Below are positions 6,252 to 64,000 of a stretch of DNA of 64,000 nucleotides, one piece after another. A model generated the notes under the pieces. The model was not told the DNA's origin and did not search any database. It saw only the letters and a list, made by a program, of their open reading frames with translations. How positions within the stretch are numbered: the first letter of the stretch is position 1; each line of letters starts with the position of its first letter. The translations under genes and the position numbers were made by a program. The stretch comes from a virus, in IMG/VR virus record IMGVR_UViG_3300017788_000011, positions 67,486-131,485 of that record. One strand, given 5' to 3'.

Positions 6252-7265
6252 ATGAGTCAACTTTTTAAAAAAGTAGCCTGTTTTACAGATATACATTACG
6301 GATTGAAATCTAACTCTGCTGTTCATAATCAAGACTGCGATGAGTTCGTAGATTGGTTCATTGCCAACGCCAAGCGTGAGGGTTGTGAAACTGGGATGTT
6401 TCTTGGTGATTGGCACCACAATCGTAATTCATTGAATATCACAACCATGGACTATAGTCTTCGGGCTTTGGAAAAACTTGGCAAAGCCTTTGACCAATTC
6501 TTTTTCTTTCCGGGCAATCACGACCTATATTACAAAGACAAACGTGACATTCACAGCGTTGAGTTTGGCAAATATGTTCCAGGAATCGAAGTAGTTCGGG
6601 AAGTACTCACAGATGGAGAAGTTACCATGTGTCCCTGGTTAGTAGGGGATGAGTGGAAAAAGATGGAAAAATTAAACAGTCGGTATGTGTTTGGTCACTT
6701 TGAACTACCGCTGTTTATGATGAATGCCATGGTTCAAATGCCAGACCACGGTGAGTTACAGGCACATCATTTTAAAAATCCTGAATATGTATTTTCAGGA
6801 CACTTCCATAAACGACAGGCCAAAGAAAATATTGTGTACATTGGCAATGCCTTTCCGCACAATTATGCAGATACCTGGGACGATGATCGAGGAATGATGA
6901 TTCTCGAATGGGGAGGTAAACCTAAATACCTCAATTGGGATCACTGTCCTAAATTTAAAACTGTTAAACTCAGTGAATTAATTGACAAGCAACAGGAACT
7001 GTGTTTACCTAAAACACATTTCAGAGTAAGTTTAGACATTGATGTCAGTTTTGAAGAAGCCAGTTATATCAAAGAAACTTTTATGAATCAGTATGAAATC
7101 AGAGAATTGACTCTGATTCCAGAAAAGAAAGAAGTAGAAATCAACACAGACCTCAGTGTTGAACAGTTTGAAAGTGTGGATCAAATTGTGTCTTCACAGA
7201 TTCTCAGCATCGAATCCGACAATTATGATCCCAAAGTTTTGTTAAACATTTACAATAACCTATGA
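6252..7265 (+). CDS. gp47: Recombination endonuclease subunit (Mre11/SbcD-like)
   Basis: Metallophosphoesterase motifs DIH, GD, GNHD, GH, SGHFH. Confidence 0.92.
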   Translation: MSQLFKKVACFTDIHYGLKSNSAVHNQDCDEFVDWFIANAKREGCETGMFLGDWHHNRNSLNITTMDYSLRALEKLGKAFDQFFFFPGNHDLYYKDKRDIHSVEFGKYVPGIEVVREVLTDGEVTMCPWLVGDEWKKMEKLNSRYVFGHFELPLFMMNAMVQMPDHGELQAHHFKNPEYVFSGHFHKRQAKENIVYIGNAFPHNYADTWDDDRGMMILEWGGKPKYLNWDHCPKFKTVKLSELIDKQQELCLPKTHFRVSLDIDVSFEEASYIKETFMNQYEIRELTLIPEKKEVEINTDLSVEQFESVDQIVSSQILSIESDNYDPKVLLNIYNNL

Positions 7266-9040
7266 TAAAAATAAAAGATCTTACAGTAAAGAATTTTATG
7301 AGCGTGGGTAATCAGACCCAGGCTGTGGATTTTGGCAAAGAACAGTTGACCTTGGTGTTAGGTGAAAATCTCGATATGGGCGGTGATGACAACGGTTCGC
7401 GCAACGGCACAGGTAAAACAACTATTATCAATGCTCTGAGTTATGCACTTTACGGCAATGCCCTGACTAACATTAAAAAAGACAATCTTATCAACAAAAT
7501 CAACGGTAAGAACATGTTGGTAACACTACATTTCGAAACCAACGGCACTGACTATAGAATCGAGCGGGGTCGTAAACCCAACGTCTTTAAATTCTTTATC
7601 GACGGTCAGGAAAGTATAGCAGAAGATCAAGACGAAAGCCAAGGCGACAGCCGAGAAACACAAAAAGACCTCGATACTCTGTTGGGCATGAGCCACGATA
7701 TGTTTAAGCACATCATTGCTCTTAACACCTACACTGAGCCTTTTCTATCTATGAAGGCCAACGAACAGCGGGACATCATTGAACAACTGCTGGGGATTAC
7801 TCTGCTGTCAGAAAAATCAGAGTTGTTGAAAGAACAGATTAGGCTGACCAAAGAACAGATTGCCAGCGAATCTGCAAAAATCGAAGCAATTAAAAATGCC
7901 AATGTTAAAATTCAAGAAACCATTGACAGTCTCGAAACCAAACAAAGTGCTTGGCGAACACAGCAAAAAGCCGACTGCGATAAGATCGATGCTGTGATCA
8001 AAGAACTACAAAACGTAGACATTGATCACGAATTAACGCAACATGAAAAATTAAAAGTCTATGACGAACAAGCGGCCAAAATTAAAAGTCTCAACAAAGA
8101 AAAGTCTACATTTGAAACTGCGCTGATACAGGCAGATAAAGCAGTTAAAAAATACGAAAAAGAAGTATTACAGTTATCAAACAATACCTGTCCGGCCTGC
8201 GAACAAAATTTACAAGATCACAGGCACACCGAAATGATCTCTGCGGCTAACAAAAATTTAGATGATGCAAAAAAATATGCTGAAACTATTCAAACAGAAT
8301 TGTCAGCAGTGATCAAAGAGTTAGAAGATATTGGCGATATCAACGGTCGACCAGACACATTCTACGAAACTATCAACGAAGCATTGAAGCATCAAAATAA
8401 TTTAAACACATTGATAACACAACTTGATGAGAAATCCAAGGCCACAGATCCTTATCAAGAGCAGATCGACGAATTAAAAAACACTGCTCTACAAGAATTT
8501 GACTGGGAAGTTGTCAACACTCTGACAACCTTGAAAGAACATCAAGAGTTCTTGCTGAAGTTATTGACCAGTAAGGACAGTTTTATTCGTAAGAAAATCA
8601 TCGATCAAAACTTGGCCTATCTCAACAATAGACTTACTTACTATCTTGACAAGGTAGGATTACCACACACAGTGGTATTTCAAAATGATTTAAATGTGGA
8701 AATTACACAGTTAGGGCAGGATCTTGATTTTGATAATCTCTCCAGAGGAGAACGCAATCGTTTGATTCTTGGCCTATCATGGGCATTCCGTGATGTATGG
8801 GAAAGCCTATATCAGAACATTAATTTGCTGTTCATTGACGAACTGATTGACAGCGGTATGGACGCCAGCGGTGTTGAAAACTGTCTGAGCATTCTTAAGA
8901 AAATGGGTAGAGAACGTAAGAAAAACATTTATTTGATCAGTCACAAGGATGAATTGATTGGTCGTATGAACAATGTTTTGCGAGTAATTAAAGAAAACGG
9001 ATTTACCAGTTATTCAACAGATCTTGAAATAAGTGAATAA
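7262..9040 (+). CDS. gp46: Recombination ATPase subunit (Rad50/SbcC-like)
   Basis: Walker A NGTGKTT, coiled coil with CPAC zinc hook, signature LSRGE, Walker B LFIDE, ISH. Confidence 0.93.
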   Translation: MIKIKDLTVKNFMSVGNQTQAVDFGKEQLTLVLGENLDMGGDDNGSRNGTGKTTIINALSYALYGNALTNIKKDNLINKINGKNMLVTLHFETNGTDYRIERGRKPNVFKFFIDGQESIAEDQDESQGDSRETQKDLDTLLGMSHDMFKHIIALNTYTEPFLSMKANEQRDIIEQLLGITLLSEKSELLKEQIRLTKEQIASESAKIEAIKNANVKIQETIDSLETKQSAWRTQQKADCDKIDAVIKELQNVDIDHELTQHEKLKVYDEQAAKIKSLNKEKSTFETALIQADKAVKKYEKEVLQLSNNTCPACEQNLQDHRHTEMISAANKNLDDAKKYAETIQTELSAVIKELEDIGDINGRPDTFYETINEALKHQNNLNTLITQLDEKSKATDPYQEQIDELKNTALQEFDWEVVNTLTTLKEHQEFLLKLLTSKDSFIRKKIIDQNLAYLNNRLTYYLDKVGLPHTVVFQNDLNVEITQLGQDLDFDNLSRGERNRLILGLSWAFRDVWESLYQNINLLFIDELIDSGMDASGVENCLSILKKMGRERKKNIYLISHKDELIGRMNNVLRVIKENGFTSYSTDLEISE

Positions 9041-9266
9041 TAGAGAAACAGAATTTGATGAGAAATTGATCAGGGCCTTTCAGGAATACCTAAGATACAG
9101 CGATAGGTGGATCCGCAGAGGCTCTGGAGGTGCGGCCATAAAAGCCAGAAATTATCTCCTTGAAATACACAAAATGACCAAACAAAGGCGCAAAGAAATT
9201 TACGATCAACGGGCAGAACTTAAAATTCAAAAACAACAGGCAAAACAAAATCCACAAGATACATAA
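9033..9266 (+). CDS. Small basic protein, histone H1-like Hc1 family
   Basis: GSGGAAIKARNYLLEIHKMTKQRRKEI matches the AA.RAR..L.E..K..K..R.E pattern of Hc1-like proteins. Confidence 0.55.
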   Translation: MNNRETEFDEKLIRAFQEYLRYSDRWIRRGSGGAAIKARNYLLEIHKMTKQRRKEIYDQRAELKIQKQQAKQNPQDT

Positions 9267-9269
9267 TGC

Positions 9270-9704
9270 GTGTCGTGGCTTTATCAAAATCAAATAGTTG
9301 AAGAAATACCCGAAGGCTATATTGGCTTCGTTTATCTCGTCACCAATCTAAAAACCGGGCAAAAGTACATAGGCAAGAAACTTGCACAATTCAAACGTAC
9401 TAAACCACCACTCAAAGGCAAAAAACTTAAACGTAGATCTGTAGTAGAAAGCGATTGGCGCGACTACTGGGGTTCTTCTGATAGGTTAAACGCAGACGTT
9501 CAACAATTAGGCCCGGAAAATTTTACCAGAGAAATACTGTATTACTGTACCAGCAAGGCAGAAATGAGTTATATAGAAGCTCGCGAACAGTTTGATCGTC
9601 GTGTACTGGAATCCGATGAATACTACAACGGAATCATCAATTGTAGAATAGGCGGATCAGAAAAACTCAGAAAAGCCTTGGCAGAACATAGGCAAAAAAC
9701 ATAG
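9270..9704 (+). CDS. Stand-alone GIY-YIG family nuclease (Seg-like), 144 aa
   Basis: GFVYLVTN...KYIGKK, YWGSS, FTREIL, E, YN motifs; basic insert KRTKPPLKGKKLKRR; no C-terminal DNA-binding module. Confidence 0.85.
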   Translation: MSWLYQNQIVEEIPEGYIGFVYLVTNLKTGQKYIGKKLAQFKRTKPPLKGKKLKRRSVVESDWRDYWGSSDRLNADVQQLGPENFTREILYYCTSKAEMSYIEAREQFDRRVLESDEYYNGIINCRIGGSEKLRKALAEHRQKT

Positions 9705-10096
9705 CAACGTGGTTTGGTCGGGGTAGCTCGACTCACCTTGAGGCAGCCGAGGTAAGGCTCGTAGCCGTCAGATACTGGTGTGTTGCACGGAAGAAGTTAA
9801 CGTAAGGCTTCAAAAGATTGGGCTCTGTGAAAAAGATACAACCCATGGGTAAGTAGTTTCGCTTGATAGGGACTGTCTGCCTTCCGCGACTATTCGCGAA
9901 TCTGGAGTAGGGGGTTTCAGGGTTGCCGCCTCCGCACGTAGCACATTTTATACAATATCGTTGAGTATTGTACAGAATATGTTACATAATCTCCTTTATC
10001 AAGAGTGGCTGTTGTACTCGGATAATGCCATTTATTTGCCCGGAAACGGGCGAATTGTGACCATAATATCTGGATAATCTTAAAGTGCTTCGCACT
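9704..10096 (+). ncRNA. Candidate large structured non-coding RNA (family not recognised)
   Basis: No ORF in track; more GC-rich than other intergenic DNA; about ten stems found by eye, many with G-U pairs: 9704-9710/9780-9786, 9717-9732, 9742-9766, 9793-9811, 9819-9845, 9862-9871/9994-10003, 9885-9898, 9910-9933, 9938-9985, 10006-10030, 10034-10055 (GAAA loop), 10084-10096. Strand inferred from G-U orientation and upstream genes. Confidence 0.6.
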
Positions 10097-10122
10097 AAAA
10101 ATAAATCAAAGAAAAGAAAAAA

Positions 10123-10166
10123 TGTGTTTGAGCGCAAGCGAAAACACAGACGAACGTAGTTCGTCT
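10123..10166. other. Tandem hairpins, possible origin/primase-signal element
   Basis: TGTGTTT-GAGCGCAAGCGA-AAACACA followed by perfect AGACGAAC-GTA-GTTCGTCT, after an A-rich tract (10097-10122). Confidence 0.4.
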
Positions 10167-10171
10167 TCCGA

Positions 10172-10177
10172 TAAATA
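10172..10177 (+). promoter_or_regulatory. Late promoter TAAATA
   Basis: Hexamer 25 nt upstream of ATG 10203. Confidence 0.55.
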
Positions 10178-10202
10178 TCATATCAACAAAAAGATTTCAA
10201 CT

Positions 10203-11177
10203 ATGCTACTTAGAGAATTATTCGAAGCACCAGGCGTAATATTAGGTCCTGATGGAAAACCTTTTGACACAGATAATCAAAAGCCTATATCAAAGCCTAC
10301 TTCTGATCCCAAAGAATTAGAAAAGCAGGTGTTAGAAAAAAACAAAACATCTGGTTTTGCCAAGGCAAAATCAATAGGTGGCACCATGGGTGCTGGCATG
10401 TCATGGCTCAGCAGAGCAGGGCTGGCTGTGTTATTTTACGATTATTGGACCACAGTCAGTGCCGCAGAAGAATCTCTAAAAAATAATGAAATCACTCAAC
10501 AAAACTTCGATGCCATACGTCAGTGGAAAATTGGCGAGCTAATATTAGCATTCTCTTCAAAATATCTTGTAAAGATTCCCGCCAATTTGTTTTTTAACTT
10601 ACCAATAAAAACCGCAGGATTAGCAGTCAAAGGCAGTGCTGCCGTAATAGCCACAGCACCCAGTTTAATATCTGCAACTGCCACAGGCACTGGCAAAGGT
10701 CTGGGACTAATTGGGAAAATATTTGGAAAAACTCGCGTAGGTCGAGGACTACAAGTTGTAGGCAAGGGAGCAGAAAAAACCGGCGAATGGTTGGGCATAG
10801 GTGGTAATAAAATTAAGTTAGCCGGGGATCGAGCATTTACCATAGCACAGAGCGGGGATGTTCTTGTTGATTTTGCCTCTGAAAGTTTTAGAGCTTGGCT
10901 TACTATTGTGATACAAACTGATGCAGGTAAAAAGTTCTTCTCTGAAACATTGCCTGAAGTAATACAGTATCCAGGTAGATGGTATGAAATATTTGAAACT
11001 ATTGCTGTTAATCTTTTTGACATATATGTCAAAGACAGTGTAGAACAAGATAAAAAAGAATCTGCGGCAAAACCAGAAGCAGAACCAGGAAAGCCAGCAT
11101 CGCCGCCAGCCAAAGATTCTGGAGTTACAAACTTGCCAGGTGTTCCTGGAGATTTTACTGGAACAATTAAGTTTTAA
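10203..11177 (+). CDS. Hypothetical protein, possible head-internal/ejection protein
   Basis: Start re-called to 10203 (MLLRELFE), downstream of TAAATA; track start 10122 runs through hairpins. Hydrophobic and Gly-rich segments. Confidence 0.6.
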   Translation: MLLRELFEAPGVILGPDGKPFDTDNQKPISKPTSDPKELEKQVLEKNKTSGFAKAKSIGGTMGAGMSWLSRAGLAVLFYDYWTTVSAAEESLKNNEITQQNFDAIRQWKIGELILAFSSKYLVKIPANLFFNLPIKTAGLAVKGSAAVIATAPSLISATATGTGKGLGLIGKIFGKTRVGRGLQVVGKGAEKTGEWLGIGGNKIKLAGDRAFTIAQSGDVLVDFASESFRAWLTIVIQTDAGKKFFSETLPEVIQYPGRWYEIFETIAVNLFDIYVKDSVEQDKKESAAKPEAEPGKPASPPAKDSGVTNLPGVPGDFTGTIKF

Positions 11178-62768: not shown

Positions 62769-62779
62769 CTAAATATATC

Positions 62780-64000
62780 ATGCCATTAAATTTCGAACAA
62801 ATTAGCACAGATCTATATCAAAAAGTCAAGGTACGTTTTCCTTCATTGCAGATAGGTAATTCAGAAGGCAAAGTCACTTCTGAACCCAATTTAGCCAGAT
62901 TTTTTGATTTTGATTTTGAAAATGCCGGACAATCATTGGGCCGAGTAAGTATTGCGCTAACTGAAAAAGACGGCATGATGGTACTGCATTCAGCAGACAT
63001 AGTCAGCGAGCAAGCAGATGACGTAAAAAACAGTTGGTTTGATTTCTTAAAAGAGTTGCGTCAATTTGCCAAAAAAAGATTGTTAAACTTTGATATTAGA
63101 GATATTTCTAAATCAAATTTAGATAAAAGAGATTTTCAGTACATAGCACAGAACAGCATCGGGGAACCAAAAATGTCAGAAAGCAAGTTATTCGGAACCA
63201 GCAAAACTTCTTACCAAGATCTGGGAGAAGTTAGACTGATTGTCAAACATTCACAGCCTGTGAATTTAAATGCGGTCAATGGCCGTACACAGCATATTCA
63301 AGGCATATACCTTGAAAACAGCCAAGGCGAAAGATTTAGATATCCTTACAAACATCTTTCAGGTGCTCGTGCGCTGGCTTCACACGTTGCCGAGGGCGGT
63401 ACCCCATATGATTCAATTGGCCAACATGTTATTGGATTATCAGAAGAACTCAGCAAATTACGTCAATATAAAAATTATGTTTTTAGAAATCCGTTCATGA
63501 TCGAAACCATGGGAGATCTAACAGAAAAAGCCAACTATCGAATTGCTGAAATTAAAAAACAACTTGAAGGCCTACAAAGACCTGCATATTACAAACAGTT
63601 CAAAGAAGGTTTTAATGTCACAGAATTAAAAGAAGTACCCGAAGAAGTAATCAACGACTGGACTGAAAAACTTACCATTAAAAAATTCAAAGAGGATTTA
63701 GCCACAGTATTTCCTTATCTTTATAAACTTTCCGAGACAGTGGTTGAAGAGCAAGACGTTCAAGAATTAAGTTACGAAGATTTTATAGAAGAAGACAATT
63801 CAGAAGAAATTGAATTTACCAAAAAAGACAGTTATTGGAGTTCGTTTGAGGAAGAGCTGGATGCTGTTAGACCAGAACATGAACAATCAGTAGGCGAAGG
63901 CCGGATGAGCGAAGTAGATATCGATCTACGAGACATTGCCAACAGCGGAGATCAAGATGATCTCCTCGATGCCTTAGGCGGCTCCAAGGGTAATGCTGTC
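62780..64000 (+). CDS. Hypothetical protein (partial, runs off right edge)
   Basis: Not in ORF track; MPLNFEQISTDLYQKVKVRFPSLQIG...ARFFDFDF...GERFRYPYKHLSGARA; TAAATA 62770-62775. Confidence 0.75.
   Translation, partial: MPLNFEQISTDLYQKVKVRFPSLQIGNSEGKVTSEPNLARFFDFDFENAGQSLGRVSIALTEKDGMMVLHSADIVSEQADDVKNSWFDFLKELRQFAKKRLLNFDIRDISKSNLDKRDFQYIAQNSIGEPKMSESKLFGTSKTSYQDLGEVRLIVKHSQPVNLNAVNGRTQHIQGIYLENSQGERFRYPYKHLSGARALASHVAEGGTPYDSIGQHVIGLSEELSKLRQYKNYVFRNPFMIETMGDLTEKANYRIAEIKKQLEGLQRPAYYKQFKEGFNVTELKEVPEEVINDWTEKLTIKKFKEDLATVFPYLYKLSETVVEEQDVQELSYEDFIEEDNSEEIEFTKKDSYWSSFEEELDAVRPEHEQSVGEGRMSEVDIDLRDIANSGDQDDLLDALGGSKGNAV

Follow-up and report, generated by a model that had tools for sequence, protein, structure and literature searches.

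What lies in the long gap that follows the GIY-YIG nuclease gene of a giant T4-like phage, and does it work together with the nuclease? We studied a 64,000-nt stretch of a 131-kb viral record (positions 67,486 to 131,485 of IMG/VR record IMGVR_UViG_3300017788_000011), here called the window, in which a single-domain nuclease gene at 9270–9704 of the + strand is followed by a pairable non-coding region. An earlier note on this DNA had proposed that the gene and the region form a nuclease–RNA system, with the RNA as a possible scaffold, guide or substrate for the enzyme. We lean, with slightly better than even confidence, towards a different answer: positions 9705 to about 10167 of the + strand would be the gene for an autonomous functional RNA of about 460 nt, which belongs to a partly catalogued family and carries twin boxes that act by base pairing. 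For annotation, the gap of 417 nt would then count as a gene. Among uncultured giant T4-like phages from lakes and estuaries the RNA is abundant, and small bacterial islands carry it as well; only one third of the family has been catalogued since 2010, and no function has been assigned to it.

Covariation downstream of the nuclease gene

Relatives of the locus were collected by a protein-first search, which confirmed 590 loci and from which we retained 80, and by an RNA-only pattern search of viral contigs, which gave at least 120 stretches; 120 representatives are mutually less than 90% identical. The region 3′ of the nuclease gene can be aligned across these relatives, and the alignments used here are sequence-based (MAFFT), not structure-aware. 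With 10 sequences, compensatory changes were found at 30 of the 69 predicted pairs. With 63 sequences from all subgroups, the named structure of 45 pairs was paired in 84.0% of the alignment cells, compared with 70.6% after shuffling, and double changes were seen in 369 cells, compared with 127 in the shuffles (in both cases 0 of 500 shuffles did as well). The covariation score of 0.348 compares with 0.077–0.101 when the partners were slid by 1–3 columns. In both sets, G-U pairs on the + strand frequently alternate with A-U or G-C, which fits an RNA of the + strand. The earlier note had read G-U pairs as a sign of RNA and had named covariation downstream of homologous nuclease genes as the check, and the alignments bear out both points; the stems that it listed are all present in the sequence, and several covary. 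Folding energy, also proposed as a check, gave a divided answer, as the + strand lies below most shuffles (z = −2.12; 3 of 100 shuffles fold as well) but the effect taken alone is modest, the − strand giving z = −1.43. From the covariation we conclude that the structure is real, and that it is formed by an RNA or, at the minimum, by the + strand in single-stranded form.

The 5′ domain (9704–9846) is a divergent version in the window. It consists of a closing stem (9704–9710/9780–9786) around two hairpins, followed by hairpins at about 9793–9811 and at 9819–9845, and compensatory changes occur at four of the five predicted pairs of the closing stem among 10 sequences of the window's own subgroup. 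The centre begins with a hairpin at 9847–9880, whose local stem covaries and whose loop (9862–9868) pairs with 9997–10003 in a long-range helix of the pseudoknot type. Throughout this helix (9862–9871/9994–10003, the 3′ strand being 9994–10003), all seven pairs change on both sides in the 63-sequence alignment. A short hairpin with a CGCG stem (9885–9898) is present in the sequence and in the 10-sequence consensus, with some compensatory change. Next, a GGAG/CUCC helix (9907–9993) encloses an invariant G-rich/C-rich hairpin at 9910–9933, in which three of five pairs change on both sides among the 63 sequences, and a hairpin of variable length at about 9935–9990, which is missing or replaced in many relatives; one metagenome contig has 12 nt in place of 9936–9987.

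In the 3′ domain, a GAAA-capped 9-bp hairpin (10034–10055; five of eight pairs change on both sides) is followed by a small hairpin with a UUC loop (10085–10095), which is conserved and has extended stems in relatives, and by an A-rich spacer (10096–10124). A conserved hairpin with a GAGCG..AGCGA core comes next (10125–10146); it is unique in the window, and all five pairs of its outer stem change on both sides. The terminal hairpin (10149–10165), with double-sided changes at six of six pairs, is the probable 3′ end of the RNA or of an operon transcript. A consensus scan scored this hairpin (10148–10166) as terminator-like on the − strand only, where a T-rich tail is found. It may stop transcription from both sides. 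No second copy of the RNA was found in the genome, and a blastn search with 9000–10300 against 50,697 phage records matched only the nuclease gene of four Melnitz records.

Two boxes that remain identical while changing

The 3′ part of the RNA holds two copies of a module, one starting from AGUGGC (10004–10009) and the other carrying the conserved UGUGAC (10059–10064). Each includes the word GGAUAAU, as box 1 (10020–10026, after ACUC) and box 2 (10072–10078, after AUCU), both on the + strand; the boxes lie 52 nt apart and flank the GNRA-capped hairpin. The box letters had been left free in the search pattern. Among 133 unique relatives, the two variable 5′ letters match between the boxes in all 133 and the remaining letters in 132, the variable dinucleotide being AG in 64 sequences, GG in 52, GA in nine, GC in five and AC in three. 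In the set found by way of the nuclease, the boxes are identical in 50 of 52 two-box regions and differ at letter 7 only in the other two; the 53rd region (L043) has one module less. A divergent subfamily uses other box words, which again match in both copies and differ at positions that do not vary in the other relatives.

When the box columns are excluded from tree building, the box word changes at least 46–48 times. A box column covaries only with its twin, and no third column in cis covaries with it. Since the box flanks stay different (ACUC versus AUCU), simple gene conversion is an unlikely cause of this identity. Copies of a locus's own box show no excess at the borders of the downstream gene slot, and the reverse complement of the own box was found nearby 103 times, compared with about 81 expected, at no fixed place. 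The boxes, always identical and fast-changing, are a clean and testable handle, and what is kept is identity, not complementarity.

Three candidate roles of the boxes were set aside. A box-to-box helix (UCNNAU with AUCUNN) is neither supported nor refuted; it shows no covariation, predicts optima that are not identical and leaves the identity unexplained. Mini-ORFs (open reading frames) in the two modules do not agree with the spacing before box 1, which is out of frame in most sequences, or with the internal stops. Translational bypass of the T4 gene 60 type would suit matching words 52 nt apart, but there is no open frame before box 1 (median 5–8 codons, 133 sequences).

In the natural variant L043 (3427–3830), a deletion from one repeated module to the other has removed one entire box module and, with it, the 3′ strand of the long-range helix; no other locus among the 53 unbiased ones shows this loss.

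Relation to the Polynucleobacter-1 motif

Membership of the Rfam family Polynucleobacter-1 (RF01718) was taken as a covariance-model score at or above the gathering cut-off of 37 bits. The motif is present in 14 of 14 tested loci of clades 1 and 2, the two largest subgroups, at 62–121 bits; the matches span the full 141-position model, start just after the nuclease stop codon and cover the first ~140 nt. In other clades, including that of the window, it was found in 0 of 12 loci at the gathering score and in 0 of 4 at E ≤ 1 (L022, L115, L071 and L013). The window copy (8500–11000, E ≤ 10) gave neither RF01718 nor any other Rfam family, the best rows being noise (E 0.8–10), and RF01718 had no match across the whole 131-kb record at E ≤ 10. 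ARAGORN found no tRNA in the window. By blastn and in the alignments, the centre and the 3′ domain of the RF01718-bearing loci can be matched to those of the window. Because RF01718 fills the 5′ part only in some clades, we regard the catalogued motif as an exchangeable part, the 5′ third, of an RNA that is much larger. The view that the element belongs to no known RNA family thus holds for the window copy, which fails every Rfam model, but not for its homologues, which carry RF01718 as their 5′ third. The conserved centre and 3′ domain (window 9847–10167) is uncatalogued.

We define the superfamily of extended Polynucleobacter-1/twin-box RNAs by homology of the centre and 3′ domain to RF01718-bearing RNAs, the long-range helix, identical 7-nt boxes after ACUC and AUCU, the GAGCG hairpin and the terminal hairpin. 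The window has all of these, at 9862–10165. In the survey table of Weinberg et al. (2010), Polynucleobacter-1 is entered as a probable RNA, probably cis-regulatory, from Burkholderiales of fresh water and estuaries (PMC2864571). The motif so tabulated resembles the window element in its freshwater and estuary habitat, and it forms the first ~140 nt of that element's homologues. The model differs in covering about one third of the RNA; it includes neither the conserved centre and the pseudoknot nor the twin boxes and terminal hairpins, and it does not reach the window copy at E ≤ 10. That survey was the only paper naming Polynucleobacter-1 in our literature search, which did not cover its supplements with the motif details; a search for GIY-YIG-linked structured intergenic phage RNA returned unrelated papers only.

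Among 80 nuclease-first loci with at least 150 nt downstream, 11 gave no match to our nhmmer profile. Ten of these were inspected and show the same layout with different box words; they form the divergent subfamily, in which a missing nhmmer match does not mean absence of the RNA. The phage RNA was also seen on ten contigs of metagenome-assembled genomes (MAGs; L211–L237), labelled Polynucleobacter, Haliscomenobacter, Bacteroidetes, Flavobacteriales, a Bifidobacterium and an archaeal genome. Since most of them hold the phage nuclease and gp46, these are probably phage contigs that were binned into MAGs.

Copies on bacterial islands

RF01718 scores above the cut-off in 16 of 141 genomes of one Polynucleobacter-type genus, on megabase contigs. 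When 12 of these regions were fetched, a pattern search found the same 3′ layout in nine, with matched boxes of five different words. The island layout comprises RF01718, twin boxes with the ACUC and AUCU flanks, the GAGCG hairpin, which the island RNAs have in common with the phage RNA by profile match, and the terminal hairpin. All nine twin-box loci have a divergent DUF6641 gene upstream and, 0.5–1.4 kb downstream, the gene for a PF00589 (Phage_integrase) recombinase of 188 amino acids (aa) that consists of the catalytic domain only. There is no co-oriented gene upstream of the island RNA, and some loci have a further ORF between RNA and recombinase. With the phage loci included, the neighbours of the RNA are small DNA enzymes of three folds (GIY-YIG, PD-(D/E)XK and tyrosine recombinase). 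Copies of a locus's own box within 6 kb were not above those of other loci's boxes, in a partial test with the island ends unmapped. A literature search on tyrosine recombinases and RNA-guided or non-coding RNA gave no paper mentioning DUF6641. The island module loci are L254 and L257–L268; five of nine have a tRNA-Phe or tRNA-Met gene at a distance of no more than 10 kb.

The neighbouring nuclease

The usual 5′ neighbour of the phage RNA is the nuclease gene, which in the window encodes 144 aa between a GTG start and a TAG stop. The protein matches Pfam PF19835 (SegE_GIY-YIG) with 121.6 bits against a cut-off of 25, residues 3–123 falling on positions 1–123 of the 123-position profile, and matches phrog_447 at 5e-39. 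Its AlphaFold2 model (predicted local distance difference test, pLDDT, 95.3) is one domain with a terminal helix. In fold comparisons (VIA-align), the I-TevI catalytic domain (1ln0_A) was the best match, with Z 8.4 and a root mean square deviation of 2.7 over 82 residues, and all matches were GIY-YIG enzymes (Z 8.4–5.7), including T4 endonuclease II (2wsh_A, Z 5.7); a sequence search of the PDB gave no match at E ≤ 1 and Foldseek none at E ≤ 0.001. Residues Y22, Y33, G35, R87, E103 and N120 are invariant in 48 nuclease sequences, and we take them to be equivalent to the I-TevI catalytic residues. Profile, fold and the conserved Tyr, Tyr-x-Gly, Arg, Glu and Asn positions place the protein in the GIY-YIG superfamily. 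The Lys/Arg stretch that had been picked out in the ORF is present, and the description of the protein as a catalytic domain only agrees with the profile match and the one-domain model. It thus has the catalytic fold of I-TevI, the Seg enzymes and T4 endonuclease II but differs from I-TevI and Seg in having no C-terminal DNA-binding module and in its fixed syntenic position in the clade.

As for its tie to the RNA, the proposed neighbourhood stands: the nuclease gene is upstream in 70 of 80 RNA-first loci, in 64 directly (ending 265–448 nt before the first box) and in six with one extra gene between, and in most loci the RNA starts 0–20 nt past the nuclease stop codon. Two records, 55% and 24% complete, have the RNA without any GIY-YIG gene, in a sample that was not aimed at nuclease-free genomes. 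One well-covered contig without GIY-YIG (L098, record G001) has a 171-aa PF24608 PD-(D/E)XK nuclease one gene upstream of the RNA. On L098, some 0.3–2.4 kb upstream of the RNA, the GIY-YIG gene is replaced by a SPASM-domain ORF, the PF24608 nuclease and a 335-aa ORF without a family.

The nuclease is not special to the RNA. Its family (phrog_447) is present in 680 phage records, among them hundreds of cyanophage records that have it at another locus. In Melnitz and Syn9, the family member lies near nrd genes, with short gaps and no RNA, and the Lys/Arg insert, present in Melnitz and partly in Syn9, is a family trait. RF01718 and twin boxes were both absent when the genomes of Melnitz, Syn9 and a Variovorax phage were scanned in full; these are three of the three complete cultured genomes with the nuclease that were checked. 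No protein residue tracks the boxes beyond phylogeny (top mutual information 0.18 of 1.0 bit for N1), and proteins that are 95–96% identical go with different boxes. We conclude that the nuclease belongs to a widespread phage family, in which it is an ordinary member with a single domain, and that it is a habitual neighbour of the RNA. The proposed nuclease–RNA system therefore stands in part: a conserved RNA of the + strand does lie beside the nuclease, but the guide role faces counter-examples and is unproven, because the nuclease occurs without the RNA in three cultured genomes and the RNA without the nuclease on two contigs. The two may be functional partners. Phage records label the phrog_447 nucleases ‘NAD synthetase’ or hypothetical; the former label, widespread among cyanophage and Felixounavirus-type records, is misleading, as it does not fit a GIY-YIG fold.

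Possible functions of the RNA

Large pseudoknotted RNAs are rare, and most of those solved are ribozymes or the cores of RNA–protein machines. The fold of the RNA comprises several hairpins, which the pseudoknot between a loop and a downstream strand links to one another. The covarying terminal hairpin is the probable end of the RNA and is closely followed by a late-promoter-like ATAAATA and by a gene that is swappable. We propose that this is an autonomous functional RNA and not a spacer or the leader of one gene. The island RNA stands apart from upstream co-oriented genes, the phage downstream genes fall into 29 clusters, and a leader for one gene family is argued against because these genes are unrelated and lie on either strand. 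The twin boxes would act by base pairing. Both may pair with one complementary word carried by a nucleic-acid partner, or a process such as strand exchange or template switching may require the complement of one box to fit its twin. We regard an autonomous RNA whose boxes have a bivalent, base-pairing role as the best-supported reading. A reader of both boxes, once found, would explain the RNA and might also explain the company of minimal DNA enzymes and the swappable gene slot.

Several observations speak against this account. No partner word was found, as the reverse complement of the own box is absent within the RNA in 132 of 133 sequences, and own-box copies within 3 kb on either side are not enriched over those of other loci's boxes (32/24.4, 32/25.1, 36/32.1 and 18/22.9). 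The nuclease upstream in 70 of 80 loci, the PD-(D/E)XK nuclease of L098 and the island recombinase may indicate an RNA that is not autonomous. The sequencing runs listed number 21, and one of them is RNA; its contigs fall only on 9219–9653, in the nuclease gene, from relatives less than 90% alike, and none on the RNA element. This coverage counts neither for nor against expression, and because the sole RNA run covers the nuclease gene only, the expression, ends and strand of the RNA are judged from covariation and G-U pairs. In principle, single-stranded DNA might covary in a similar way.

Of the other explanations, the one we rank highest, unlikely as we hold it to be, makes the RNA the specificity subunit of the adjacent minimal nuclease or recombinase, with the boxes pairing two DNA sites or strands and the variable gene slot as the product. 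The close spacing of nuclease and RNA in most loci, the reduction of the enzyme to its catalytic domain, the PD-(D/E)XK nuclease that stands near the RNA in L098 and the recombinase in nine of nine island loci all agree with it; crossover cores, moreover, as a rule need two identical sites, and there is a variable slot 3′ of the phage RNA and an extra ORF before the recombinase in several island loci. Yet the nuclease family, with its Lys/Arg hairpin, lives without the RNA in the cultured genomes and in the cyanophage records, the RNA is kept where a gene intervenes (six loci) or GIY-YIG is absent, none of the protein columns follows the box, neither a target nor a further box copy was found near the slot, and adjacency among syntenic relatives is weak functional evidence. 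In its most specific form, which we consider very improbable, the twin-box RNA would be a programmable subunit of RNA-directed DNA exchange, each box pairing the crossover or cleavage core of one DNA partner, where a minimal enzyme cuts or swaps. If this were true, the enzyme would be GIY-YIG or PD-(D/E)XK in the phages and the 188-aa tyrosine recombinase on the Polynucleobacter islands, and the exchange would yield the swappable gene slot 3′ of the RNA in phages and in some island loci. The enzyme company and the variable genes 3′ of the phage RNA keep such a bridge-RNA-like reading alive at long odds. Even less likely are boxes that pair like with like in a parallel-stranded helix, of which we know no case in natural RNAs. 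Also unlikely, and ranked next, is a cis-acting untranslated region (UTR), either a 3′ UTR tuning the early operon that includes the nuclease or a leader controlling read-through downstream. The element does have a stop codon on one side and the covarying terminal hairpin on the other, a consensus scan gave no promoter-like site on the + strand just upstream, and the 2010 table marks the motif as probably cis-regulatory (PMC2864571). Against this, some 460 nt with a pseudoknot and twin boxes exceed the needs of transcript stability, the unrelated downstream genes, sometimes on the opposite strand, have their own ATAAATA after the hairpin, and the island copies have no co-oriented upstream gene. 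Nor is there an alternative pairing with the halves of the terminal hairpin (z = −0.6 and 1.6 versus shuffled partners; 104 sequences), and a riboswitch or attenuator with a terminator was rejected on the same lack of excess complementarity.

Two further readings seem to us less probable again, and equally so. The element might act as DNA, as a replication origin, an R-loop region, a hot spot of recombination or a site of single-strand folding, with the boxes as direct repeats for slippage or exchange. This would accord with boxes that require identity and not complementarity, with the loss of exactly one module by deletion between repeated modules in L043, with the many relatives' contigs that break about 70–180 nt past the nuclease gene and with the A-rich tract and small hairpins at 10085–10165. 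However, G-U covariation on one strand over more than 400 nt, including a long-range helix, is typical of RNA; the GC skew has no turning point at the locus, the box flanks stay different, against simple gene conversion, and the module deletion was found in a single unbiased locus. The other reading holds that the GIY-YIG enzyme is a free-standing homing endonuclease that settled beside a conserved RNA gene, with no joint function. Free-standing homing endonuclease genes often adjoin conserved targets, the best family match is SegE-type and the closest fold is the I-TevI catalytic domain, L098 has a different nuclease family near the RNA, and in six loci other genes stand between nuclease and RNA. 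For a selfish neighbour, though, the nuclease seems too constant, as it appears near-universal at this site in the clade (upstream in 70 of 80 RNA-first loci and absent in two well-covered ones, in a sample not aimed at nuclease-free genomes) and not sporadic; it has no DNA-binding domain as in Seg and I-TevI, and the family members of Melnitz and Syn9 lie near nrd genes without an RNA.

We also compared the locus with known systems. In bridge-RNA recombination, exchange takes place at a core present in both DNAs, which two RNA loops address (PMC11208158). By analogy with the IS110/IS621 bridge RNA described there, the locus has a structured RNA beside a DNA-rearranging enzyme and two segments for one core common to two DNAs (PMC11208158). 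It differs in having no DEDD/RuvC-Tnp recombinase, in its identical 7-mers where the bridge RNA has bipartite guides, and in an enzyme that is not obligatory; DNA words matching the boxes at ends or target were not found within 3 kb in the phages or 6 kb on the islands, a partial search given that the island ends are unmapped. As with the OMEGA RNAs of TnpB and IscB, a small nuclease gene precedes the RNA, which starts where that gene ends or close to it. Unlike them, it accompanies a GIY-YIG fold whose family occurs without the RNA, and no transposon ends or guide–flank relation were seen; the obligatory co-occurrence of enzyme and RNA of the OMEGA type is missing, the enzyme being alone in three of three cultured genomes and the RNA in two records. 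GOLLD, ROOL and HEARO are RNAs of several hundred nt with an intricate fold, an association with phages or mobile elements and no assigned function, and the RNA is like them in size, fold and company. Their Rfam models gave no match in the window or in five relatives (E ≤ 1 or E ≤ 10), and to our knowledge twin identical boxes are not a described feature of them. A group I intron with its endonuclease gene was rejected, as there was no Rfam intron match in the window or the relatives scanned and the downstream genes are unrelated between loci.

Genomic setting

The RNA lies at the end of a rightward block of T4-type genes, gp55–gp47–gp46–GIY-YIG, in which a Mre11-like gp47 (6252–7265), a Rad50-like gp46 (7262–9040) and a 77-aa ORF precede the nuclease gene; downstream of the RNA, a baseplate-hub gene is found on the opposite strand. 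The record of one relative, rated complete, has 354,680 bp, from which we take the source group to be giant T4-like phages. The metagenome runs that contain the stretch come from fresh water, a lake, a lagoon and wastewater.

In agreement with the earlier note, the ORF listing places the start of the gap at the TAG of the nuclease gene. The gap is not the largest in the window, as the note had it, but one of three internal gaps above 400 nt among ORFs of at least 70 aa (1142–1563, 422 nt; 62769–63269, 501 nt; 9705–10121, 417 nt). Its end at 10121 comes from the mechanical listing, and alignments of relatives extend the conserved non-coding elements to about 10177. The mechanical start of the downstream ORF (ATG 10122) is probably wrong, as it lies inside conserved non-coding hairpins. 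Because the late-promoter-like ATAAATA (10171–10177, + strand) and an ATG at 10203 are conserved in the alignments, the latter is the probable true start of the variable downstream gene. For this gene (324 aa, + strand), neither Pfam nor PHROG gave a match, and none of 86 related loci has a homologue; among 148 genes 3′ of the RNA, 29 unrelated clusters on either strand were counted. The G+C content is 0.47–0.55 over 9650–9950, falling to 0.41 by 9900–9999, compared with 0.30–0.48, mostly below 0.45, in flanking 100-nt windows and about 0.4 for the genome.

A 23-nt imperfect direct repeat (74%; 9694–9716 and 10141–10163) brackets the RNA and may be due to chance. In the metagenome runs, diverged contigs pile up over the 5′ half of the nuclease gene (window 9282–9470). 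Many relatives' contigs (loci L009–L052) stop about 70–180 nt past the nuclease gene, and these ends look like an assembly break at a stretch common to co-occurring strains, beside a variable region.

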